Shown in pieces: positions 1-24,488 of a stretch of DNA of 24,488 nt. The notes below the pieces were generated by a model that had not been told where the DNA came from, did no database searches, and saw only the letters and a list, made by a program, of their open reading frames with translations. The stretch is taken from IMG/VR virus record IMGVR_UViG_2579779149_000006; one strand, given 5' to 3'. Position 1 is the stretch's first letter; each line of letters opens with the position of its first letter. Origin of the DNA: a virus (lineage: Duplodnaviria; Heunggongvirae; Uroviricota; Caudoviricetes). Both the position numbers and the translations under genes were made by a program.

Positions 1-636
1 TTATTTTCGTAAAAAAATCGACGCCCTATCCGGGTTTACTTTACATAGATGAGAAAGATATAGCGCCCTTCGATTAAATTTGCCTTCAGTAAGGTCATCA
101 ATGTTTTTCCTGAATGGGTACTTAATCCGTGCAGCTATGTCAAAGTCACTAATGCTTGCATGAGCTTTGGTAAGTTTAGCTATCCCATAAGTGCCATAGC
201 CAAAGTAGCAACAGGATATATATGCTATGCAGATATCATCTGCTGTTGTTGCTTTCCTGATAAGAATGGCTAATATTTGCTCTCTTATTTTTCTTCGAAC
301 TGTTTTCTCATATCTCTTAGTTATTGTTCTAACAAACTGTTGGTCTATAGTACTTGCGCCTTGATGAATGTTTTTAAATAATCTCAGATATATAGTTCTT
401 AAAATAGCAACTGGATCAACTCCCCTGTGTAATAGTTGCCGATGATCCTCAGCCACTCTTAATATATCAATTAAAGATAAAGATATAGATCTTTCACTTA
501 TCGAACTAAGCCTTATATAATCAATACATTTATAATAATCTTCCATAATACTTTTAACCCTGAATTTAAAAACCATTTCTGCCAATAGCAAGTATGGCAA
601 TGACAGTAAGGTAATCAAAAAGCGCTTCGCTGCCAT
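1..636 (-). CDS. GT51-family (monofunctional peptidoglycan glycosyltransferase-like) membrane-anchored protein, ~211 aa
   Basis: ORF 1..672 with stop TAA at 1-3. The track start at 672 is a TTG; first in-frame ATG is at 634-636 with AGGAG 3 nt upstream. N-terminal hydrophobic anchor RFLITLLSLPYLLLA. Motifs AEDHRQLLHRGVD, GASTIDQQ, RKIREQ and YFGYGTYG match GT51 motifs (EDxxFxxHxG, GxSTIxQQ, RKxxE, glycine-rich YFG). AT-rich, unlike the flanking P2 genes. Confidence 0.6.
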   Translation of the reverse strand: MAAKRFLITLLSLPYLLLAEMVFKFRVKSIMEDYYKCIDYIRLSSISERSISLSLIDILRVAEDHRQLLHRGVDPVAILRTIYLRLFKNIHQGASTIDQQFVRTITKRYEKTVRRKIREQILAILIRKATTADDICIAYISCCYFGYGTYGIAKLTKAHASISDFDIAARIKYPFRKNIDDLTEGKFNRRALYLSHLCKVNPDRASIFLRK

Positions 637-1163
637 TTCACGTCTCCTGATGTATCTGCAGCGGTGGACCAAAATTTGCCATGCATAGCATCTGCATTCA
701 CCTTTTGGAAATACAGCAAAATGGTATAACTCCTTAACTCACCTTCCATTTTTATATTCAATGAGGCATGATTTTTCCTTAAGTAATTTCTCTTAATCAC
801 CCCTCGAACCTCTCCAATACTTCTATGCTTACCAGTGTATGGTCTTATATTATTATTGTTTTCAACGTCTTTTGTTTTCTCAATAAACCCTTCAATATTA
901 TTGTTGTCACATATTAAAGTCAGTGTATAAAACGTTTTTAAATTCAAGTAAGGATTATACGCAGATTTTAGTGTTTTACATTCAACTTCAAAGACGCCCG
1001 AAAAATTTGGTGGCGGTTTAATATATTCTTTGAATATAAAAATCAATACAGCCGCAATAAGAGTAGCAACAGCACCACTTAAGATTTGATTTGTGGAAAT
1101 AAAGGTTAGAGATGGCTCAAGCCATTCCCAAAATATGTTGAAAAAATCAGTAAATTTATTCAT
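615..1163 (-). CDS. hypothetical single-pass membrane protein, 182 aa, no recognisable domain
   Basis: ATG at 1161-1163, stop TGA at 615-617. Predicted TM helix ILSGAVATLIAAVLIFIF near the N-terminus. The 3' end overlaps the downstream GT51-like gene by 22 nt (translational coupling). AT-rich, with a 280-bp AT-rich leader at 1164-1441. Confidence 0.5.
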   Translation of the reverse strand: MNKFTDFFNIFWEWLEPSLTFISTNQILSGAVATLIAAVLIFIFKEYIKPPPNFSGVFEVECKTLKSAYNPYLNLKTFYTLTLICDNNNIEGFIEKTKDVENNNNIRPYTGKHRSIGEVRGVIKRNYLRKNHASLNIKMEGELRSYTILLYFQKVNADAMHGKFWSTAADTSGDVKWQRSAF

Positions 1164-1664
1164 AAATTTCTTTTGATAGTATGTTTTTTATATGATGTTA
1201 CATTTTTGAGAAAAAAGCAACTTCGCCGATTAAAAACTATCTCGCTGGAATTTATGGGCATCATGTTATGAATACATTCTTATCCCATAGGGAATAAAAC
1301 CCTATCTATAGAATAAAAATCCAAATTTTATCTTAATAAATCAGATAAAAGATACTTATACTACAAAGGTACTTGTGTAAGATCAAACTTTTAATCCTAT
1401 AAGTTATAGATTGAAGCAACTGTGACTTATAGTGCGCACACTTAAGAATCTCCGATGACGATGGTAGCAGGAGACAACTTTTGACAACTCACTCCTATTA
1501 CCAACTTACTGACTTGCTCCGCGTTGAGAGATTTATAGTTATGCCAGCACTGTCCGCTTCTGGCACATTGCGGAAGGGCTAACGGCCCGGAGTAAGTGAG
1601 TAACGGATGTTTGCAAGCACTCTTACTGCTGACAATGATCGCATCCAAGATAAAATAGGTGGTG

Positions 1665-2180
1665 TCAAGGTACAGGTTCACCAATATAAGTGTGTGTGCA
1701 GCAACGACATGTCACCTTAACGTCATCTCTTGTGATTGAAAGGTTTACCTGTTGCAGAATTCCATTCTCATCAACAAACAGACCTGGGTAAAAACTGCTT
1801 TCACCAATGCAGACTAAATCCCTTCGCTGATGCTCATGTAGCGCGACCAACCAGAATACCGGCTCGGTGGTATCAAGACGTCCACATACTTCGCTGAATA
1901 TTTCATTCCACGGCTTGCCAATCTCTTTGATCAGAAAATAAAACAACGGTGTGTAGTCTCGGCCACGCTTCTGTCTGCTATGCATTGTCTCGCGCTTTAC
2001 CAGTAGCTCATCTCCGACTTTTTTGCGATTTCGTTCCCACCGATACTCAGCACCCGGATTATTAGAATGGTGCCGCGTCGTCGTGTTGACGCTGCGATAT
2101 AGTTTACGGGACTTATTCTGCTGATGAATACGCATAGCTCGATCTCGTACATCCTTTCTTTTGTGGGCCAGTAGCCCCAT
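1665..2180 (-). CDS. hypothetical protein, 171 aa (uncertain; possibly a decayed gene)
   Basis: ATG at 2178-2180 with AAGG 5 nt upstream. Basic N-terminus and a CxCC cluster at the C-terminus. The 1442-2356 interval is open in three overlapping minus-strand frames, so the coding assignment is ambiguous. Confidence 0.3.
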   Translation of the reverse strand: MGLLAHKRKDVRDRAMRIHQQNKSRKLYRSVNTTTRHHSNNPGAEYRWERNRKKVGDELLVKRETMHSRQKRGRDYTPLFYFLIKEIGKPWNEIFSEVCGRLDTTEPVFWLVALHEHQRRDLVCIGESSFYPGLFVDENGILQQVNLSITRDDVKVTCRCCTHTYIGEPVP

Positions 2181-2366
2181 TCAGACCTTGTGTTACTGTA
2201 TAAAAAATGAACACCCTTAAAGGCTGTATCATTCTGCTCAAATACCATCCTACTGACAACTACCAAAGGTCGGATTCTGGCACGGAGCGGACAATCAAGT
2301 AGAACTGAAGGCCCGCTATGTGCGAAAACAGACAGACACAGATTGATCACAAACATACCTGAACCA

Positions 2367-3296
2367 TCAGGATTTTATATCCTTGTGTGGCTCTAATCCT
2401 TCAGAAAGGACTTTATCAAATGCAGCATATTGCCTTTGTAATTTACTTTCACATTCATACAGACTCTTTAAACTAACATCATCCATAGATTGAAAGAGTC
2501 TTTTGTTATCAACTAAATAGGAGTATGCATTAAAAATAGAAACATCCATTATATCTTTCAGTTCTTCATCAGATAGTTTAGTCTTTTTACTTAAATGCTT
2601 AATCACATGTGACTGCAATGCATTTGCGCGAACCATGGCGGGAGGATATTTGCTATTCTTCCCTTCCAATTTACATAGAAAATTAAAGAAAAAAAATATT
2701 GATGTTAAAGATAAACTAACAAGTGTTTTCTCTTCTATTTTTTTCTCCGGGGCCTTTTTTATTGTATTTAAGACGACATCTGCAACAAAGTATGCTGAGA
2801 ATACATCTGCATCATACTCCATTAATGTTTTAATCTGATCTTCACTAAAATCTTCATCGACTACATTGTACCCCATTGAATAAACTTGGTAATCACCAAT
2901 CAGGTTTATTTCTTTACTTTTGGCTAATGATAAGTGTCCACGAGCGACATGTCCAAGTTCATGACCGAAAATATGGTGCCAAATAAAGACACACCCTAAC
3001 GCAACTGGAGCTTCCTTTTCTTTCAAGTCAGGGTATTCTCTCATGAAGAATTCTATATTTTCAGAAAGAATGTCAAACGTTATTGGTATCAACCCACTCA
3101 ATAAAATAATATGGAAATTATTGTCTTTTTTTTGTGCGTGAGCATTAAGGTTAAAATCGTCCTTAATGTGCAGAGCTATTTTTTTACCATCCTCTTCAAT
3201 AGCGGAGTTTATCTCTATCAATCCTTTTTTGAAGGTATCGTAAACAGGCAAGAAAAAACCACTTTCTATTTTCGAAATTTCATCACGGGTCATCAT
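2367..3296 (-). CDS. M78 (ImmA/IrrE-like, DUF955) zinc-metallopeptidase-domain protein, 309 aa
   Basis: Tandem ATG at 3291-3296 with AAGGTGG SD 5 nt upstream. HExxH motif in FGHELGHVARGH plus a downstream acidic/aromatic motif EYDADVFSAYFV, resembling the ImmA/IrrE third ligand region. Strongly AT-rich, with a poly-A/T tract inside the gene. Confidence 0.6.
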   Translation of the reverse strand: MMTRDEISKIESGFFLPVYDTFKKGLIEINSAIEEDGKKIALHIKDDFNLNAHAQKKDNNFHIILLSGLIPITFDILSENIEFFMREYPDLKEKEAPVALGCVFIWHHIFGHELGHVARGHLSLAKSKEINLIGDYQVYSMGYNVVDEDFSEDQIKTLMEYDADVFSAYFVADVVLNTIKKAPEKKIEEKTLVSLSLTSIFFFFNFLCKLEGKNSKYPPAMVRANALQSHVIKHLSKKTKLSDEELKDIMDVSIFNAYSYLVDNKRLFQSMDDVSLKSLYECESKLQRQYAAFDKVLSEGLEPHKDIKS

Positions 3297-3495
3297 ATTT
3301 CCACCTTTAACATGAAATCTAATTCTAATTGATAGGTCTACTTAGTTTCGCTCATTGTACTATTTTATTAAAGTGGGTTGAAGGTTACATTTTTATATAG
3401 CATGTCTACTGTCCCTTTGTGGCACAGAGCGGACTGTCAGATTAGTTTTTACTCTGTGCCATAGATGAGTAATCTCACACCAGATCTAATACGAT

Positions 3496-4074
3496 TTATT
3501 GTGGCATTTCAGGCCATTCTATATCCGGAGCATCTTCCGGCTGAACGCGATTCAGTAGCACACGGTATTTTTTCCAGTGTGTCAGACTTAACTTTTCTTC
3601 CTCGGTAGCCATATCTAAATCGACAGCATCCTGCAGCGTGGCAATAATTTCACCTGCATATGCAATCAGCTCTTTCTTCTGAGAGTCAGCCGCTCTGACA
3701 AGCGCATCACGCTCTGCATTCTCATCATTCACCCACGCATTTCCGTTCCATTTCTGATAATCCCCATCCGGGGAAATGGCTGTCACGTCTGGAGGTAATG
3801 CGCCAAGTTCAGAAATATAAATGGCTGCTCCTGTTTTTGTTTCATAGACAGTCTTTCCACGATGGTCTTCCACCAGATCCCATTTCATTTCATCTGCATT
3901 GAAAACGGCGGCAAAACCCACCGGAATATCTGGAGGTGCAATGTCTGTACTGTTTGCAGGAAGACCTGTATGCGGCGGAATATATGCGTCACTTTCGCCA
4001 ATAAATTCATTGGTTCCATCAAGTAAATTGAAAACGCGGATAGTTTGTGTCTCTGCACTCATTCTGAAAGTCAT
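3496..4074 (-). CDS. G: tail fibre assembly chaperone (P2 gpG-like), 192 aa
   Basis: ATG at 4072-4074 overlaps the H stop (TAATG). Lies immediately downstream of the tail fibre gene. Sequence has typical Tfa features (N-terminal MxxxMSAET... and WNGNAWV). Confidence 0.85.
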
Positions 4075-5849
4075 TATGCCAGCCTCACAATATAGTTATA
4101 CGCAACGTTTTTTACGGTGTTCTCTGAATTACCTGTGGCACTTACAGTGACGGTATGACTATGCGCGCCAATCGCAATGGAATGGCTGTGAGCACCAATG
4201 CCAACCGTGTGATTATGCTGACCAATGTCGACTGTATGGGCGTGTGCTCCCGCAGAGCTTGACACCTGGTTGGTTCCTGATACCTGTACGCGTTGTTTAC
4301 CCCCGATGGAGTCACCACCGTAACGACCACCGACAGTGTGTGTATGCGCTCCCGTATTGTTTGTCGTTTTTGTGCCGTGGTTAAACGTGCTGACCGTTTT
4401 TGTCCCGTAATCAAACGAACTGGTTGTTTTCGTCCCTAAATCCGTACTGGATGCACTGGCACTGTGGGTATGTGATTTAATTCCGTCCTGTTCCTGTGAT
4501 AATACGGCGCGACCACTGGCGGGTTTGCCCTTGATTGTCCAGCCGCGCATATCTGGAATCACCCCTGACGGATAAGCTACTGCAAGCAGGGGATAGGCTG
4601 CTTTATCAAAAGTCTGCCCCTGCATCAGGGCATAGCCTGTAGGTACTGAATCAGAAGGCCACGGGATTGGAGCACCTACCGGAAAGTTGTTGTACCCGTC
4701 ATGATGAATCAACTTCCAGCCTTTAAAAACACCTGCGCAAACTGCCGCAAAACCGATTACATCTCCATTAAAATCAATGCCAATAACAGTATTGTATCCC
4801 TGAGTATTGCTGTGTGCAGAGTTGATGTAGTGCTTCCAGGTGTGTCCTCCAGGCATTCCATTCTTTGCTGAGGAAGCATTAAAAAAGCCACCACGCGTAC
4901 GTAAATCAGTAGCAATATCACTTATATTTTCGGCGTACTCATTTAATCCCGCTCCTTTAGGTACTCGCTTGTTTGCATTGTCATTAGCAGCTTTCACTGC
5001 TTTCGGAGTCGCGGCAAGCGTTTCAGAATCGCTGTTGGTGGCACTACTTAGCTGGACAAGCCCTTTTCGTGCCGTGGTGGCGTCCTGTGCGGTGTATTTG
5101 CCATTAGCAAGGTCATATGCTGTCTTAACCGCCTTTGGCGTTGCTGCGAGCGTCTCAGATTCGCTGTTGGTGGCACTACTTAGCTGAACAAGACCTTTTC
5201 GCCCCGTGCTGGCGTCCTGAGCGGTATATTTTCCGTTAGCAAGGTCATACGCTGCCTTAACCGCCTTCGGCGTTGCGGCCAGCGTTTCAGATTCACTATT
5301 GGTCGCGCTGCTTAACTGAGTAAAACCTTTTGCAGTCAGTGAGGCGTCCGGATGGCGTCGTGACTGTTCGTGCTCTGCAATTTTGTCATCAACGTAATCC
5401 TGCGTCGCCATCACCGTTGTGGTGTCGATGGTCAGATCCACTGAGGCCACACTGCTGACGATAATGACCATGCGGCAGGTCTGCGAACGTCCTGAGCCTT
5501 CGGCAAGGGCAGGCTTATAACTTTCGGCCATGTTCGCCACGGCAATTAACGCACCGGTATCATCGTACAGACCAAGTTCACGCATCCAGAAACCGCCCAC
5601 CTCCGGCGGGATGACCAGCTCTGCGATAATATAATTACTGTGTCGATTGTCCTGACTGATTTTATTCAGGGCATGTCGCCAGACCTCATTAACAAGTTTT
5701 GTCTGTCCGGCATCCGGCACCGGCAATTGACCGCCACCGTCCCCGACGGCCATCGTGGTAATGTTGACCTTCCTGCCTCCCGGTGCAGTCGCCGCTGCCA
5801 GCTTTGCTGCACCGGCGGTAGTGATAACGGTTTGGAACTTTACGCTCAT
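4074..5849 (-). CDS. H: tail fibre protein (P2 gpH-like), 591 aa
   Basis: ATG at 5847-5849. Internal 44-aa repeats ([36 protein letters not shown]). C-terminal block GAPIPWPSD...[32 protein letters not shown] and repeated HxH motifs (GAHAHTV, GAHSHS), ending NYIVRLA, as in P2 H. Confidence 0.9.
4965..5330 (-). repeat. about 132-bp tandem repeat (about 2.75 copies) inside the tail fibre gene, encoding the 44-aa fibre repeat
   Basis: Protein repeats at residues about 174-217, 218-261 and 262-295 of H. Near-identical DNA blocks are visible around 5040, 5172 and 5304. Confidence 0.7.
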
Positions 5850-7295: not shown

Positions 7296-7643
7296 TCAAC
7301 TCACAGGGATGGTTAACGAAAGTTGCTGGCCGGTGTCGTTGTGCTGGCCGTTTAACGTAACTGTCATTCGCCCGTCAAAACTGCGCTCAGTGGTGACGGA
7401 TGACAGGGTGACGCGGGGTTCCCATTTCAGCACCGCCATGTAACAGGCGACCTTAATCTGCAACTCAAGCGCCGGGGTCTGCGGCTGGTCAATCATTGAC
7501 GCCAGCAACGAGCCGTAATCACGACGCATCACCCGTGAGCCGACCGGTGTGCGCAGGATATCGCCGATACTCTGGCTGATATGCTCAAGGTCAGTGACAG
7601 TCAGGCCATCACTGCAATTCATTCCGAGATAACGCGCTGTCAT
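7296..7643 (-). CDS. W: baseplate protein W (gp25/GPW family), 115 aa
   Basis: ATG at 7641-7643 overlaps the V stop (ATGA). 115 aa, as P2 W. Confidence 0.85.
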   Translation of the reverse strand: MTARYLGMNCSDGLTVTDLEHISQSIGDILRTPVGSRVMRRDYGSLLASMIDQPQTPALELQIKVACYMAVLKWEPRVTLSSVTTERSFDGRMTVTLNGQHNDTGQQLSLTIPVS

Positions 7644-16488: not shown

Positions 16489-17522
16489 TGAGCAAGAAAA
16501 AAGGGAAAACACCGCAACCTGCGGCAAAAACAATGACCGCCAGCGCCCCGAAAATGGAGGCATTCACCTTTGGCGAGCCGGTGCCGGTACTCGACCGCCG
16601 TGATATTCTGGATTACGTCGAGTGCATCAGTAACGGCAGATGGTATGAGCCGCCGGTCAGCTTTACCGGTCTGGCGAAAAGCCTGCGTGCTGCCGTGCAT
16701 CACAGCTCGCCGATTTACGTTAAACGCAATATTCTGGCTTCAACGTTTATTCCGCATCCGTGGCTTTCTCAGCAGGATTTCAGCCGCTTTGTGCTGGATT
16801 TTCTGGTGTTCGGCAATGCGTTTCTGGAAAAGCGTTACAGCACCACCGGCAAGGTCATCAGACTGGAAACCTCACCGGCAAAATATACCCGCCGTGGCGT
16901 GGAGGAGGATGTTTACTGGTGGGTGCCTTCCTTCAACGAGCCGACAGCCTTCGCACCTGGCTCCGTGTTTCATCTGCTGGAGCCGGATATTAATCAGGAG
17001 CTGTACGGCCTGCCGGAATATCTGAGCGCCCTTAATTCTGCCTGGCTGAATGAGTCAGCCACGCTGTTCCGCCGCAAGTATTACGAAAACGGCGCACATG
17101 CCGGATACATCATGTACGTCACCGATGCCGTGCAGGACCGCAACGATATCGAAATGCTTCGCGAAAACATGGTTAAGTCGAAAGGCCGCAATAACTTTAA
17201 AAATCTGTTTCTCTATGCACCACAGGGGAAAGCCGACGGCATTAAAATTATCCCGCTCAGTGAAGTGGCAACGAAGGACGATTTTTTTAATATCAAAAAA
17301 GCCAGTGCCGCTGACCTGCTGGACGCACACCGCATCCCCTTTCAGTTGATGGGTGGCAAGCCGGAGAACGTCGGGTCGCTGGGTGATATTGAGAAAGTGG
17401 CAAAGGTCTTTGTCCGCAATGAGCTTATCCCGTTACAGGACAGGATTCGGGAAATAAACGGCTGGCTTGGTCAGGAAGTCATCCGCTTTAAAAACTACTC
17501 ACTGGACACTGACAACGGCTGA
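16488..17522 (+). CDS. Q: portal (capsid vertex) protein Q, 344 aa
   Basis: ATG at 16488-16490. 344 aa, as P2 Q. Followed by a terminator and the cos region. Confidence 0.9.
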   Translation: MSKKKGKTPQPAAKTMTASAPKMEAFTFGEPVPVLDRRDILDYVECISNGRWYEPPVSFTGLAKSLRAAVHHSSPIYVKRNILASTFIPHPWLSQQDFSRFVLDFLVFGNAFLEKRYSTTGKVIRLETSPAKYTRRGVEEDVYWWVPSFNEPTAFAPGSVFHLLEPDINQELYGLPEYLSALNSAWLNESATLFRRKYYENGAHAGYIMYVTDAVQDRNDIEMLRENMVKSKGRNNFKNLFLYAPQGKADGIKIIPLSEVATKDDFFNIKKASAADLLDAHRIPFQLMGGKPENVGSLGDIEKVAKVFVRNELIPLQDRIREINGWLGQEVIRFKNYSLDTDNG

Positions 17523-17526
17523 ACAT

Positions 17527-17549
17527 CGCCGCCTGCGGGCGGCTTTTTT
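17527..17549 (+). terminator. rho-independent terminator after Q
   Basis: GC-rich hairpin GCCGCC-tgcg-GGCGGC followed by TTTTTT, immediately 3' of the Q stop. Confidence 0.6.
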
Positions 17550-17691
17550 ACACCCCGTCATCACGCACTCACACGCTCACCACCGCACAAAACACCCCGC
17601 AGACACACCAACGCCTCAACTGGCAGACTAAACGCCATCACGACGCGCTCAGACGCTGAAAAAATAAAATCAGCACCACCGCCAGCGCGCA

Positions 17692-17710
17692 GTGCTTTCC
17701 CCGCCTCGCC
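17692..17710. other. cos cohesive-end sequence (19-mer)
   Basis: GTGCTTTCCCCGCCTCGCC is the reverse complement of GGCGAGGCGGGGAAAGCAC, which I recall as the P2/186 19-nt cohesive end. It sits 170 bp past the portal gene, where P2 cos is expected. The match is from memory, not a database check. Confidence 0.55.
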
Positions 17711-17994
17711 CGCCCGCTTCACGTGGCGGTTTTAATGCAGTTGCATAGATACTATGGATCCGCACCAGTCCTGACCGCACGCAGCCTGAACGGACATCCC
17801 CAGCGCATGCAAAAACATTCACTTGTTGCATGCATAGCTTTTTAAGTACGCCATACCGCAACTGTACATTTTTAAGCAATTGGCAACTTTAAAAAATTTA
17901 CATTGCTTTCAAGACCTTATCATCCGTAGTCTCTGTTTTTTACTTTGAGCTACATCAATAAAATCTCAAACATGTTTAATGCAAAGCCCTTGTT

Positions 17995-18048
17995 ACACAA
18001 CATAGAATGTATGTCTAGAAACAACGACATACTATATGTTGTGTTTTT
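17995..18048 (+). terminator. long imperfect AT-rich hairpin followed by a T-run (terminator-like or structured RNA 3' end)
   Basis: Arms ACACAACATA (17995-18004) and TATGTC (18010-18015) pair with GACATA (18026-18031) and TATGTTGTGT (18035-18044); loop 18016-18025; followed by TTTT at 18045-18048. Confidence 0.3.
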
Positions 18049-18188
18049 CCGGCTCTCTGTTCGGTGATATGCCAAATCACTTTGCGTTTAAACAGAGCAT
18101 TATTTCAGGGCAAGACTTCGCTCAAAAGTCATTCCACCTAAGAAGCGCATATACCGGTGGAAGTTGCCCTCTACTTACAGGAGGCAAT

Positions 18189-18302
18189 ATGAAGAAATGC
18201 TATTACTGCATTCTCGTTCTGGCCCTCTTTGGCTATCCAAACGGTAGTCCGAGTGGTTTGTCAGTAAACGTCAGTAATATCAATGTCAGCATTATGCTTT
18301 AA
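18189..18302 (+). CDS. candidate small protein, 37 aa (MKKCYYCILVLALFGYPNGSPSGLSVNVSNINVSIML)
   Basis: ATG at 18189 preceded by a consensus AGGAGG (18179-18184, 4-nt spacer). Signal-peptide-like N-terminus. Stop followed within 12 nt by a strong terminator. The longer 88-aa ORF from 18036 begins on a non-ATG codon. Confidence 0.3.
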   Translation: MKKCYYCILVLALFGYPNGSPSGLSVNVSNINVSIML

Positions 18303-18314
18303 TATGCTTCAAAC

Positions 18315-18344
18315 AAAAAAACCACCTGCCAGGGTGGTTTTTTT
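18315..18344. terminator. bidirectional rho-independent terminator
   Basis: AAAAAAA-CCACCT-gcca-GGGTGG-TTTTTTT: a GC stem flanked by a 7-A run and a 7-T run. It can terminate the plus-strand small ORF and the leftward early operon coming out of A. Confidence 0.7.
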
Positions 18345-18604
18345 GCGCCCATCATCAATACGATGAAAGACTGACAAGACTTCGCTCAAGACGAATTATG
18401 CGTCGACATAAGGTTACCCGCAATGATTTTATTAGACTAAATGGATGGCCTTTTATGACCCGGATCAAACGGCTGTCCTTACCGACATGCTAGTCACTCA
18501 ATAGCATTTAGCCTTCTAATTCAGCATGCTATTGACCTTCTGCTGCCCCATAACTGCTCCGCATAAGCCATTCAATGCCATATCAAATCACGTTGTGTTT
18601 TTAC

Positions 18605-20881: not shown

Positions 20882-21146
20882 ATGAGCCAAAAGCCTCTGA
20901 ACAACGCCTGCTGAGTTGCTCAACCTGCGCGTTTAAATCAGCAAAAGACTTTGCGCTTCCGGTCAGAATATCGTGATGCATCAGGCCGGAAACGAGCTGG
21001 CTTAATTTCGGATAATAACCAACCACCGCCAGCCATTCCTGACCGGCGTTTTTACCGCTTTCCGCTCTCTTTTTCTCGTGGAGAATAAACTGAAAGCTGT
21101 CACTGGTAACGACATAACGTTCGCCAATTTCAATACGAATACTCAT
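20871..21146 (-). CDS. small early protein (P2 orf83 position), 91 aa
   Basis: ATG at 21144-21146. Overlaps the A start by 11 nt and the upstream gene stop. Call based on synteny. Confidence 0.55.
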   Translation of the reverse strand: MSIRIEIGERYVVTSDSFQFILHEKKRAESGKNAGQEWLAVVGYYPKLSQLVSGLMHHDILTGSAKSFADLNAQVEQLSRRCSEAFGSYGR

Positions 21147-21367
21147 GCCGTTCTCCGGTAATGTTTGTTTTTTGCTTCAAAGACTGACTGGCAGGAAACA
21201 CAACGCGTGGCTGACGGATAAGCTGCACGACGGGCAGCAGGTATTGGCGCGTCACACTCTTCGCAAACCAGCGCAGAAGCACAGCAATGTTTTACCCTTG
21301 CCGCGTTAATCTGGCGCTCCAGTAATTCAGCCTGTTGTTCCTGAATAAAATCTACGTTGTCCGGCAT
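21143..21367 (-). CDS. TraR/DksA-family C4 zinc-finger protein (P2 orf82 position), 74 aa
   Basis: ATG at 21365-21367. Four-cysteine pattern CxxC...CxxC (CEECDAPIP...CVSCQ), typical of TraR/DksA zinc fingers. Confidence 0.7.
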   Translation of the reverse strand: MPDNVDFIQEQQAELLERQINAARVKHCCASALVCEECDAPIPAARRAAYPSATRCVSCQSVFEAKNKHYRRTA

Positions 21368-21669
21368 TACCAGCTCCTTTTGTCGTTAAGTTTTTTAAAT
21401 TCATCAGCGCAATAGCTGGCAATTTCTGTCGTTAATTTCGTCAGTTCATCCACGGAGGAGATTTGCTTGTGAAATACAGCGCGTTTAACAAGTAAATTGA
21501 CCACATCAGACAGGAGATTTAATTCATTCTGATAAATCGCGATAACAGACTCAGTTATTTCGCGTTTTTCTTTATCAAGACCAAGTTGAATAAGAGATAA
21601 ATCGCCATTTTTCATAACGGCGATTTTTAAGGCGTTATTCAGTAATACAACCGAACGAGAACAGGACAT
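21367..21669 (-). CDS. hypothetical protein, 100 aa, AT-rich (P2 orf81 position)
   Basis: ATG at 21667-21669 overlaps the upstream stop (TGATG). Visibly lower GC than neighbouring early genes. Confidence 0.5.
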   Translation of the reverse strand: MSCSRSVVLLNNALKIAVMKNGDLSLIQLGLDKEKREITESVIAIYQNELNLLSDVVNLLVKRAVFHKQISSVDELTKLTTEIASYCADEFKKLNDKRSW

Positions 21670-21893
21670 CAAAGCACCTCCCCGCGAGACAATCCGATAT
21701 TGTGAAATTTTTCCGACTCCTGACTGAGCAGCTCGACTATCTCCACGCGGGATAACTCCGCCTTTGTGATGTGGCGAATCATGGCGTCAAGATGAGAAGA
21801 AAAGCGCGTCGCAGCATCGGCCTGTGCTTCGGTTCTGGCCTGTTGCAGCAGTAATGCGTATTTACCGCACTGATTTTCAGAAACTGTATGCAT
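21669..21893 (-). CDS. hypothetical small early protein (P2 orf80 position), about 74 aa
   Basis: Start taken at internal ATG (MHTVSENQ...) with GGAG 7 nt upstream. Stop TGA at 21669-21671. Confidence 0.5.
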
Positions 21894-21956
21894 GACTTTC
21901 TCCAGGCAAAAAGAAGTCCCGCACAATTAAGTGCGTTAAAAACTCTGGTTAATTAT

Positions 21957-22457
21957 TTAATGCAAATATTGCTCTGGTTTTACCGACGTCAGAATTGTCG
22001 GCGCATACTCAAACAGGCTGAATAATTCACGTAATGCACGGAATAAAGCATCACGCCAGTAACATGACTCTTCATTAATTTGCCAGTATGGCTGGTTGAA
22101 TTCTTTTTCAGTCAATCCGGCATGCATAAATAAAGTACGACGCTGACTGACTGTTAAAAAACTAATATATGCATATTCACTTGCGCCAACCTGACGGCGT
22201 TTTGAGAATGCCCCACGCAATTCATCAATTGCACAAACCAGCCGTTCACGTTCGACGTCGTTCATTTCTTCAAAACGCATCGTTGCATGACGTTGTTTTA
22301 ACTGCGCATGAAAGCAAACTGTTAGCCGTTCGCGCTCCATCATCTGATTATAATAATCACATGTATCCTGCCAGCGAGGGACGGCAAGATGCTTACCAAT
22401 TATCCGGCGCATAGCTGCTGGCTGTTTTTCAACGAGATTAAGCGTCATCACTGTCAT
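21957..22457 (-). CDS. B: replication protein B (helicase-loader-like), 166 aa
   Basis: 166 aa, exactly as P2 B. Position between cox side and A. Start overlaps the upstream ORF stop. Confidence 0.8.
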   Translation of the reverse strand: MTVMTLNLVEKQPAAMRRIIGKHLAVPRWQDTCDYYNQMMERERLTVCFHAQLKQRHATMRFEEMNDVERERLVCAIDELRGAFSKRRQVGASEYAYISFLTVSQRRTLFMHAGLTEKEFNQPYWQINEESCYWRDALFRALRELFSLFEYAPTILTSVKPEQYLH

Positions 22458-22624
22458 TTCCAGACCCTCCGGCTTTTCAGAAAGGTCAGAGCCTTCTTTA
22501 ACGGACTCTGTTTTTTGGTGCGGATAATGATTCCCTTACGCCCCTTACCGTGGGTGATGGTGAAGTCAATCGCCCTGGGGCTTTCGTTACGCAATAACTG
22601 AGCAATACAACGAGGCTCGTTCAT
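22454..22624 (-). CDS. hypothetical small basic protein (P2 orf78 position), about 56 aa
   Basis: ATG at 22622-22624 with AGGTGG 6 nt upstream, 10 nt after the cox stop. The longer ORF to 22714 would overlap cox by 80 nt. Confidence 0.35.
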   Translation of the reverse strand: MNEPRCIAQLLRNESPRAIDFTITHGKGRKGIIIRTKKQSPLKKALTFLKSRRVWK

Positions 22625-22634
22625 CCTTTCCACC

Positions 22635-23006
22635 TTAAGCCGCACGGCCATGTCTTGATTTGCTGTAACTAATGCGATTTTTCCAGTCATGCCATTCTGT
22701 CGGAGCTTCATCAACTAGCTGGGCTGCGTACTTGTCCCACTCACGGCGATTAATCCATAATTCAGCTTTCCCTCTTGGTTTTAATGGGTCTGTCATGTAG
22801 AAGGCTGGCAGCTTTCCTGCTTTAGCCATTTCAGCCACCGCGCGTGGTGTCTTACCGATGTAAAGAGCAAAACCTTCTTTCGACAGCAAATCAGATGGGC
22901 GCTCTGAAATCTGAATGCTTTTACGTTTGGCTTCATTTTCGAAACTTGCCTCATCGCTAGTTGGACAAGAAATTTCTACATTTGTCGTCACTTTGCTATC
23001 CTCCAT
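22635..23006 (-). CDS. cox: Cox-like excisionase / early-promoter regulator, 123 aa
   Basis: ATG at 23004-23006. HTH-like segment GFALYIGKTPRAVAEMAKAGKLPAFYMTDP, resembling the P2 Cox core. First gene of the leftward early operon, divergent from C. Longer than P2 Cox (91 aa). Confidence 0.6.
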   Translation of the reverse strand: MEDSKVTTNVEISCPTSDEASFENEAKRKSIQISERPSDLLSKEGFALYIGKTPRAVAEMAKAGKLPAFYMTDPLKPRGKAELWINRREWDKYAAQLVDEAPTEWHDWKNRISYSKSRHGRAA

Positions 23007-23099
23007 AAGATTTGCGATTCACCAACTGGAGCCATCTAGAGCCTTTTTGAGCGAATCACAAATTGCCAAGTAACAATATAATTGGAGATTAGCAAAATT
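23007..23099. promoter_or_regulatory. divergent Pe/Pc immunity control region with candidate direct-repeat operators
   Basis: 93 bp between the divergent cox and C starts. Imperfect 9-bp direct repeats GCGATTCAC (23014-23022) and GCGAATCAC (23051-23059). Perfect TATAAT at 23077-23082 on the plus strand. P2-type C repressors bind direct repeats. Confidence 0.45.
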
Positions 23100-23399
23100 A
23101 TGTCAAGTGAACAAAGTGAGAAACTAAAGCTCATCCGTGAATCCGAACGCCTTAAAACTAAGGAACTTGCTGAATTGATTGGAATTAATTACTACACATA
23201 TCATGGATATGAATCAGGAAAATCAAAAATGCCTATGGAAGCAGGTATGAAGCTGTTTAAGCATCCACGCTTTCGCAAGTATCGTGACTGGTTCATGTTT
23301 GATGAAACAGATCCAGCAGCTGGACAAATAGCCCCGGCTCTCGCACACATTGGGCAAGACTCAACAACCTTGCACCACTCAGACCAGAAGACTGGCTGA
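23100..23399 (+). CDS. C: immunity repressor C, 99 aa
   Basis: Start taken at ATG 23100 (MSSEQSEKLK...); the track start at 23082 is TTG. 99 aa, as P2 C. HTH-like segment TKELAELIGINYYTYHGYESGK. Transcribed towards int. Confidence 0.75.
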   Translation: MSSEQSEKLKLIRESERLKTKELAELIGINYYTYHGYESGKSKMPMEAGMKLFKHPRFRKYRDWFMFDETDPAAGQIAPALAHIGQDSTTLHHSDQKTG

Positions 23400-23492
23400 C
23401 GATTTATTCAGCATATGTGTGTAGTAAATGTACGAAAGAAAATTGCATTAATTTTCAAGTAGTAGAAGTAAACAGCGTCATCGGAGGGCTTT

Positions 23493-24488
23493 ATGTCTAT
23501 TAAAAAGCTCGATGATGGTCGTTATGAAGTGGACGTCAGACCGCAGGGTGCAGATGGAAAACGTATCAGGCGGAAATTTAAAACTAAAGGTGAAGCTCAA
23601 GCATTCGAACGTCATGTACTGGTTAACTACCACAACAAAGAGTGGTTGGAGAAACCAGCCGACCGCCGAACTCTTACAGAGTTGTTAGGCAGATGGTGGA
23701 TATATCACGGAAAATCACATGAGCGTGGAGATATTGAACGGGGGCGTTTAACGACAATAATCGCCAAATTTGCAGAAATGGGAGTGTCCAGAGCTGACCA
23801 GCTAACAAAGAAAACGATAACTGATTATCGCGTTGTAATGATGAACGATGGTCTGAAACCAGCCAGCGTAAATCGACATCTGGCAATAATGAGCGGGATG
23901 TTCACCAAGTTAATTGACGCCGGTGAATACCACTCTCACAACCCGTTCCGTGAGATTAAACGGTTACGTGAAGCTGTTACGGAAATGGCTTTTTTGTCCA
24001 GTGAAGAGATTACGCGGCTGTTATCCATGCTTGATGGTGATGAATTAAATGCAACTCTGGTCTGCCTTTCTACTGGTGGACGCTGGAGTGAAGTGTCTAA
24101 TTTAAAAGCTGAACATATCATTAACCAGATGGTTACGTTTATGAAAACTAAAAACGGAAAACGCAGGACAATTCCCGTTTCGCAGGACCTGATTAAACGG
24201 ATCAAGACCAAAAATTCAGGCAGGCTTTTTAATGCCAGTTACTACAAAGTGCGTAACGCTCTCAGGGAAGTAAAACCCGATTTACCTGACGGACAAGCAG
24301 TACATGTTTTGAGGCATACATTTGCCACACATTTTATAATGAATGGAGGTAACATAATCACATTGCAGCGCATCCTGGGTCATTCTAACATTCAGCAAAC
24401 TATGACCTACGCACACTTTGCACCGGATTTCTTACAAGATGCTGTGACTCTTAACCCGGTGTCAGGAATGTCCATAATGCGTCCATAA
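23493..24488 (+). CDS. int: tyrosine integrase (P2 Int-like), 331 aa
   Basis: Catalytic-domain signatures VLRHTFATHF and LGHSNIQQTMTYAHF (R, H-x-x-R, Y). Directly downstream of C as in P2. Stop TAA is the last 3 nt of the window, so the att site is off-window. Confidence 0.9.
   Translation: MSIKKLDDGRYEVDVRPQGADGKRIRRKFKTKGEAQAFERHVLVNYHNKEWLEKPADRRTLTELLGRWWIYHGKSHERGDIERGRLTTIIAKFAEMGVSRADQLTKKTITDYRVVMMNDGLKPASVNRHLAIMSGMFTKLIDAGEYHSHNPFREIKRLREAVTEMAFLSSEEITRLLSMLDGDELNATLVCLSTGGRWSEVSNLKAEHIINQMVTFMKTKNGKRRTIPVSQDLIKRIKTKNSGRLFNASYYKVRNALREVKPDLPDGQAVHVLRHTFATHFIMNGGNIITLQRILGHSNIQQTMTYAHFAPDFLQDAVTLNPVSGMSIMRP

Follow-up and report, generated by a model that had tools for sequence, protein, structure and literature searches.

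To our knowledge, single-gene phage defences based on proteases are still few. [quoted passage not shown] This solitary, prophage-borne HExxH protease cleaves EF-Tu in the presence of the T4 Gol peptide; the cut falls at Gly59-Ile60, a phage capsid peptide activates the enzyme, and T-even phages are excluded (PMC3014915). Lit has the arrangement HExxH-x(30,140)-HPx4R in common with the M48 peptidases, and in the M48 member BepA the histidine of HPx4R is the fourth zinc ligand and acts as an autoinhibitory 'plug', while the stretch that connects the HExxH helix to the helix bearing the zinc-binding glutamate forms a dynamic 'lid' (Bryant et al., PMC7950410). The M48 members (HtpX, BepA, LoiP, YcaL, Ste24 and Oma1; PF01435) are housekeeping proteases of envelope quality control, whereas the gene investigated here is cargo of mobile elements. 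An M48 peptidase has also been linked to restriction-modification (R-M) in the RptR-RM-DarTG-M48 defence island (PMC12255303). A further group to be considered comprises the M78 proteases ImmA, IrrE and CapP, which resemble the protein described below in being gluzincin-type HExxH proteases on mobile elements, and which also figure in the regulation of immune systems.

Here, we analysed a 24,488-nt stretch of viral DNA (the window), in which an intact gene with an ATG start, listed among the open reading frames at 2367..3296 on the minus strand, encodes a protein of 309 aa (ORF309). Its RefSeq entry, WP_047668714.1, is annotated as a 'hypothetical protein' in CE0011b and NB4833. A sequence-only reading of the window had described an AT-rich 309-aa protein at 2367-3296 that adjoins the tail-fibre module, has no adjacent XRE-type HTH gene, and combines HELGH with a further histidine and a downstream motif. 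All of this was borne out. The Shine-Dalgarno sequence AAGGTGG (3302..3308, minus strand) is located 5 nt 5′ of the ATG, and the GC content of the gene is 33% (0.333 vs 0.53-0.61 in the phage structural genes at 5-17 kb of the window). Directly upstream lies the tail-fibre assembly gene G (3496-4074; Caudo_TAP, E=3.4e-40), separated from ORF309 by an AT-rich spacer of 199 bp (3297..3495, minus strand), and the flanking ORFs, small ones on either strand included, contain no HTH or other Pfam domain (E≤1; in a second scan, E≤0.1). The catalytic signature occupies aa 112-116, followed by His 121 (HELGHVARGH) and by EYDADVFSAYFV at aa 160-171.

The spacer between G and ORF309 carries a hairpin, GGCACAGAG-N22-CTCTGTGCC (~3411-3460, minus strand), and a weak match to a promoter, TTCAAC-17-TACAAT (~3354-3382, minus strand), which is a candidate judged from the letters of the DNA. 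A consensus promoter scan returned no site meeting its criteria upstream of ORF309, a combined promoter and terminator consensus scan found no more sites than in shuffled sequence, and an Rfam scan of window positions 1-4200 matched no family. Stretches of low GC (42-47%) also occur at 17500-18600 and 21000-24488, past the capsid and terminase genes, and probably correspond to the P2 hotspot near cos and to the early region.

The family to which ORF309 belongs is small and, so far, unannotated. A word-indexed search of 5.8 billion proteins yielded 15 clusters at 90% identity from E. coli, Klebsiella, Salmonella, Dickeya and Vibrio, none of them with a Pfam domain, and the gene is present in only 2 of 5426 complete E. 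coli genomes. An exhaustive HMM search of 1.84 billion representatives retrieved 109 proteins at E≤1e-3, nearly all of them 300-380 aa long; these relatives stand for clusters at 50% identity, and 61 of them were aligned. ORF309 matched no PADLOC model (known and candidate defence families), scans with NCBIfam and PHROGs gave nothing significant, and a PDB sequence search with a narrow profile found no match. Likewise, no homologue was detected by tblastn against 50,697 phage genomes or in a scan of the GTDB species-representative genomes. A fold search of BFVD retrieved one uncharacterised Myoviridae protein (E=4.5e-8) and otherwise nothing informative.

Conservation was counted in the alignment of the 61 relatives, whose mean column identity is 13%. 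Residues H112, E113, H116, H121, D164 and R223 are invariant in 61/61 sequences, and A52, G120, E160, A163 and P218 are conserved in at least 90%. Because the motif residues are invariant across the 61 relatives at such low overall identity, a chance occurrence of HExxH can be ruled out. Four family motifs were defined: NAxA, HExxHxxxGH, ExDAD and (Y/H)Px4R. The NAxA edge-strand motif (N51-A52-H53-A54; 3135..3146, minus strand), with N51 in 53/61 and A52 in 58/61 relatives, aligns to the NAFA (iNAFA) strand of HtpX and BepA and is common to M48. The segment HELGHVARGH (aa 112-121; 2934..2963, minus strand), with H112, E113, H116 and H121 invariant and G120 in 60/61 relatives, is placed by the AF2 model on helix 95-118 and is predicted to provide two zinc-binding histidines and the catalytic glutamate; its G120 and H121 are kept as in M48 and Lit (HExxHxxxxH). 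In MEYDAD (aa 159-164; 2805..2822, minus strand), E160 and A163 are each found in 60/61 relatives and D164 in 61/61, and E160 is the predicted third zinc ligand, corresponding to the ExxAD motif of M48 and Lit. Finally, KYPPAMVR (aa 216-223; 2628..2651, minus strand), in which P218 is present in 57/61 and R223 in 61/61 relatives, is the counterpart of the HPx4R 'active-site plug' of M48 and Lit, with a tyrosine replacing the histidine. Within the family, this position (217) is occupied by Y in 40 and by H in 21 of the 61 relatives.

The AF2 model of ORF309 is a single compact domain (pLDDT 82, pTM 0.84), in which the active-site helix (95-118) is followed by the helix carrying the third-ligand glutamate (152-185). 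The flanks of ~100 aa at the N terminus and ~130 aa at the C terminus, which the sequence-only reading had regarded as featureless, turned out to be parts of this same domain: the former contains the conserved NAxA strand and the latter the conserved YPx4R motif. Between the HExxH and Glu helices, at the position of the dynamic lid of the M48 protease BepA, a loop of 22 residues (aa 126-147; 2856..2921, minus strand) is predicted to be disordered (pLDDT <50), yet it is conserved in sequence, with N131 and S140 invariant and K128, L132, D135 and M141 at least 90% conserved in the close family. We therefore consider it a candidate lid. Since both a plug position (YPx4R) and a conserved disordered lid loop are present, it is a reasonable inference from what is known of the related families that ORF309 would be a latent protease in need of activation, although the plug tyrosine in its clade may mean that its regulation differs from that of BepA and Lit.

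The only strongly hydrophobic stretch of the protein (aa 189-210; Kyte-Doolittle 1.77) is modelled as a high-confidence helix within the compact domain, and ORF309 carries neither a signal peptide nor a lipobox, TM anchor or TPR domain. It is a predicted cytoplasmic, single-domain zinc metalloprotease, representing an unnamed family among the M48-like gluzincins. Its peripheral association with the membrane is possible; Lit, for comparison, is reportedly membrane-associated.

Several lines of evidence place this family close to M48. In Pfam, ORF309 itself gave a weak M48 match in the HExxH region (E=0.081; 13.2 bits vs the gathering cut-off of 20.3), and 26 of the 61 relatives matched Peptidase_M48 (E≤0.1), the best at 1.1e-7. 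When PDB sequences were compared with the family profile, HtpX and BepA were the sole peptidase matches, aligned at the NAFA strand and HExxH. Moreover, ORF309 has HExxH on the active-site helix and the ExxAD glutamate on the next helix, and similarity to bona fide M48 members was found both in profile–profile comparisons and in structure. At the plug, position and spacing match those of HPx4R, but the zinc-binding histidine is replaced in the clade.

In architecture, the closest characterised relative of ORF309 is Lit. Both are products of solitary prophage-borne genes, are ~300 aa long and share the same architecture. Lit of E. coli K-12 contains HHEISHVVLQH, EEREAD and THPAAYER in the same order as the ORF309 motifs, and in alignments MEYDAD of ORF309 falls on EREAD of Lit and KYPPAMVR on THPAAYER. 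The AF2 models of the two proteins show the same order of secondary-structure elements over ~300 aa, namely a long N-terminal helix, a set of three strands, a pair of helices, then the HExxH and Glu helices, a hydrophobic helix, the plug with a helix, and two C-terminal helices. The two proteins also differ: ORF309 keeps the NAxA strand of M48, whereas Lit lacks it and has F-x-I-R-V instead, the lid loop of ORF309 is ~20 residues longer than that of Lit, and its plug residue is Tyr, not His.

Profile comparisons with hhalign, run against Lit and E. coli M48 sequences, refine this relationship. The broad superfamily profile matched a 21-sequence Lit alignment at 97.0% (E=1.1e-10, 168 columns), in an alignment that begins in the beta-strand region, takes in HExxH and ExxAD and reaches the HP/YPx4R plug motif, and it matched the single Lit sequence at 94% (E=1.3e-7, 131 columns). 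The same profile matched the four E. coli M48 paralogues together at 95.7% (E=1e-8, 58 columns), and the single sequences of BepA at 78% (E=1.9e-5, 19 columns), LoiP at 73% (E=3.1e-5, 18 columns) and HtpX at 69% (E=4.4e-5, 35 columns). A strong Lit match was obtained with the broad superfamily profile only; the narrow 13-sequence profile against the Lit family reached 60% (E=8.9e-5, 21 columns), the Lit family against the single ORF309 sequence 12.6% (E=0.0023, 23 columns), and in HMMER searches PF10463 matched neither ORF309 nor any of the 61 relatives, Lit itself scoring 374 bits. The Lit family, in turn, matched the four M48 paralogues at 80% (E=1.4e-5, 61 columns) and LoiP alone at 81% (E=1.2e-5, 78 columns). 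Because the superfamily matches both groups, these profile comparisons place it between M48 and Lit, apparently connecting the two. Lit is therefore best regarded as a relative within the M48-like group and not as a demonstrated sister family of ORF309, given that the link depends on the broad profile and that the Lit profile matches LoiP better.

The genomic distribution of ORF309 is sporadic and follows mobile elements. The complete E. coli genome CE0011b has this DNA in a P2-like prophage, flanked by G and the tail-sheath gene, an interval (G-FI) shared with the window that we take to be the Z/fun variable region of the P2 map. This Z/fun (G-FI) locus has been named as a defence site (PMC13586616). 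The position between the P2 integrase and the adjoining host gene, listed as a defence hotspot in the same work (PMC13586616), is where a homologue resides in K. oxytoca, with a P2-type integrase on one side and the host alr gene on the other. Other homologues occur in a lambdoid prophage of Vibrio, in Dickeya adjacent to a DUF4238 gene and a T4SS/ICE region, in a K. variicola islet (L012) with DUF5677 and umuDC genes, at a prophage end (L022) with umuDC, SRAP and DinI genes, and in islands with integrase and HNH genes. ORF309 is also found in the NB4833 chromosomal island and on an IncFIB plasmid, and a small plasmid of Vibrio encodes a 28%-identical homologue next to AbiEi/AbiEii and a type I R-M system. 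In CE0011b, IS2 is inserted between G and ORF309 (L001 12561-13789; window position ~3500), and H, the tail-fibre gene, is in fragments; owing to this insertion and the broken H, the prophage copy of that genome is degraded, whereas the window copy is intact.

The eleven contexts have no partner gene in common: in an all-vs-all BLAST, none of the neighbour proteins compared were homologous to each other, the neighbours of the homologues have no homology to those in the window, and no HTH gene lies directly beside a homologue in the other contexts examined. A PADLOC scan of ten neighbours of homologues returned a single weak, generic HNH match, with no model matching the DUF4238-domain neighbour in Dickeya, and most neighbours in the other contexts are unknowns. 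Whether the host is E. coli, Klebsiella, Dickeya or Vibrio, the gene has 32-36% GC; each of the nine orthologue copies examined is intact and full-length, and dN/dS values of 0.12-0.27 indicate purifying selection. ORF309 is thus a solitary and horizontally mobile gene of prophage variable regions, islands, an ICE and plasmids. In the K. variicola islet and at the prophage end, the homologues (87% and 60% identity, respectively) lie within ~2 kb of umuDC and SRAP, in different orders and orientations, and between these two contexts umuDC is 82% and the SRAP/YedK-like gene 86.5% identical. The genes may share a cargo region, or they may be linked functionally through DNA-damage tolerance.

In the window, ORF309 belongs to an AT-rich block of ~4.9 kb that also includes ORF171, ORF182, a transglycosylase-domain protein and a 259-aa protein past the window edge. 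The DNA of this block is 99.9-100% identical between the P2-like prophage and the NB4833 chromosomal island, and the same five genes are carried by an IncFIB NDM-4 plasmid, where ORF309 is 99.7% identical (tblastn). Base-by-base comparison of the window with CE0011b (L001) and L003 mapped the right-hand breakpoint to ~3434 (3420..3440), where one arm of an imperfect inverted repeat (CAGAGCGGACTGTCAGAT) is located. Both block ends (window ~3434 and L001 ~7560-7580) carry an imperfect inverted repeat, ATCTGACAGTCYGCTYTG, of which a shorter version is present in the NB4833 island, and the right end falls within the hairpin GGCACAGAG-N22-CTCTGTGCC described above. The inverted repeat or hairpin at the block ends may mark how the cassette moves.

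Considering what kind of protein ORF309 might be, two alternatives to a functional M48/Lit-like enzyme deserve attention. According to one, adopted in the sequence-only reading as far as the family label is concerned, it would be an anti-repressor protease of the ImmA/IrrE (M78) type that cleaves an XRE-family repressor encoded elsewhere and so works as a regulatory switch of the prophage or island. The generic gluzincin motifs (HExxH and a downstream ExxA-D/N) fit this proposal, as do weak matches of 3 of the 61 relatives to PF06114 (best E 0.042) and 'IrrE protein' entries in the BFVD Foldseek search (E ~0.03-0.25, with TM scores of only 0.18-0.27). ORF309 itself, however, did not match PF06114 at E≤1, its relatives favour M48, its closest fold is not that of the IrrE, ImmA or CapP structures, no sequence or structural match to these proteins was seen at the levels tested, the accessory motifs differ, and, unlike the ImmA/IrrE type, ORF309 is without a partner HTH gene. 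We thus consider an M78 identity extremely unlikely and are highly confident that ORF309 is an M48/Lit-like zinc protease, its activity being predicted. Of the earlier interpretation, the part that saw an orphan hotspot cargo gene is retained and sharpened, and the M78 label is replaced by an M48/Lit-like one. The other alternative, a catalytically dead or decaying remnant, pseudo-enzyme or selfish passenger, draws on the great rarity of the family (those 15 clusters among 5.8 billion proteins) and on the tyrosine in place of the plug histidine, but it is hard to reconcile with predicted catalytic residues that are invariant in 61 relatives, or with nine full-length orthologues and their dN/dS values, and appears very improbable.

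As for what the protease does, it might act together with its window neighbours in a multi-gene system, processing or activating a partner. The near-identical five-gene block shared by prophage and island, and the recurrence of the same genes, all on one strand, on the IncFIB plasmid, are what such a system would predict. However, ORF309 homologues of 46-87% identity are found where all four other genes are missing, ORF182 and the transglycosylase protein occur, with or without ORF171, in Enterobacter and other genera without ORF309, ORF171 is found alone in 186 other E. coli genomes, and gaps of ~190-500 bp separate ORF309, ORF171 and ORF182, which together make a joint system very unlikely. 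A role of the protease cargo outside defence, in DNA damage or stress, counter-defence or competition (through, for example, removal of DNA–protein crosslinks, processing of a protein of an SOS module, or degradation of a protein of the host or a rival element), would be in line with the homologues beside umuDC and SRAP (YedK-like) in K. variicola (87%) and at the prophage end (60%), the latter also with DinI, with the lack of any known defence model matching ORF309, and with the non-defence cargo that prophage variable regions hold as well. Against it, umuDC and SRAP are absent from the other nine contexts, these genes and DinI are common accessory cargo whose co-location may reflect a shared cargo region, and ORF309 has no DNA-binding domain and a fold that is M48/Lit-like, not SprT- or Wss1-like. 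On balance, we regard a non-defence role as unlikely, though by no means far-fetched.

Our preferred reading, by analogy with Lit, is that ORF309 may be a latent Lit-like protease with a role in defence or phage exclusion, one that would arrest the cell under infection, a proposal to which we give almost, but not quite, an even chance. In such a scheme, the plug and the lid would keep the active site occluded, and the protein would stay latent in the lysogen until a protein of an infecting phage bound it or reshaped its substrate and thereby switched the protease on. Once active, the enzyme would attack an essential protein of the host, or perhaps one of the phage, thereby aborting the infection and protecting the prophage-bearing population. 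A translation factor such as EF-Tu would be a target by precedent, with nothing specific to this protein pointing to it, and EF-Tu itself has at best a slim chance of being the substrate. The Lit precedent, the two P2 hotspot positions, the AbiE/R-M vicinity and the sporadic AT-rich mobile distribution make exclusion plausible; the absence of a PADLOC match, the mostly unknown neighbours and the umuDC/SRAP vicinity in two contexts count against it.

More tentatively still, the whole family (109 clusters) could be a new single-gene anti-phage system, a widespread and previously unannotated group of latent M48/Lit-type proteases, which we hold to be somewhat doubtful. If so, its members on prophages, plasmids and ICEs would sense a phage protein other than T4 Gol and would have a host target different from, or additional to, EF-Tu, the family would bridge the housekeeping M48 proteases and the so far isolated U49/Lit, and a quality-control protease fold would prove to have been recruited to abortive infection. 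Confirmed defence would add a new trigger–target pair for phage sensing by proteases; conversely, its absence would mean that a hotspot position and a Lit-like architecture are insufficient to predict defence. Either way, an unannotated family gains a defined set of catalytic and regulatory motifs, M48 proteases and Lit can plausibly be connected in evolution, and the gene is located in two recognised cargo hotspots of P2.

The remaining genes of the block within the window have distributions of their own. ORF182 (182 aa; 615-1163, minus strand) has an N-terminal hydrophobic segment, and its gene overlaps by 22 nt that of the transglycosylase-domain protein (211 aa; 1-636, minus strand), which consists of a TM anchor and a GT51 domain only (PF00912, E=1.8e-22). 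This overlap is kept in Enterobacter and in the other contigs examined, where ORF309 is absent. One homologue of ORF182 bears the UniRef name 'SMODS-associating 2TM beta-strand rich effector'; Leclercia, Serratia, Rahnella and Citrobacter also have homologues. The pair matched no PADLOC model and may form a two-gene envelope-acting module.

ORF171 (1665-2180, or 1665-2135 in RefSeq; minus strand) encodes a basic protein with a Cys-rich C-terminus that matched no family, and the segment containing it (window 1546-2293) has ~46% GC, higher than the rest of the cargo. A 295-aa protein encoded next to an ORF171 homologue in other E. coli was compared with ORF309 as possible kin and proved unrelated. 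An 87%-identical copy of ORF171 precedes the ORF182–transglycosylase pair in Enterobacter, and in the 186 other complete E. coli genomes the ORF171 segment, at ~96% identity, lies in an integrase island next to ychF among unrelated neighbours.
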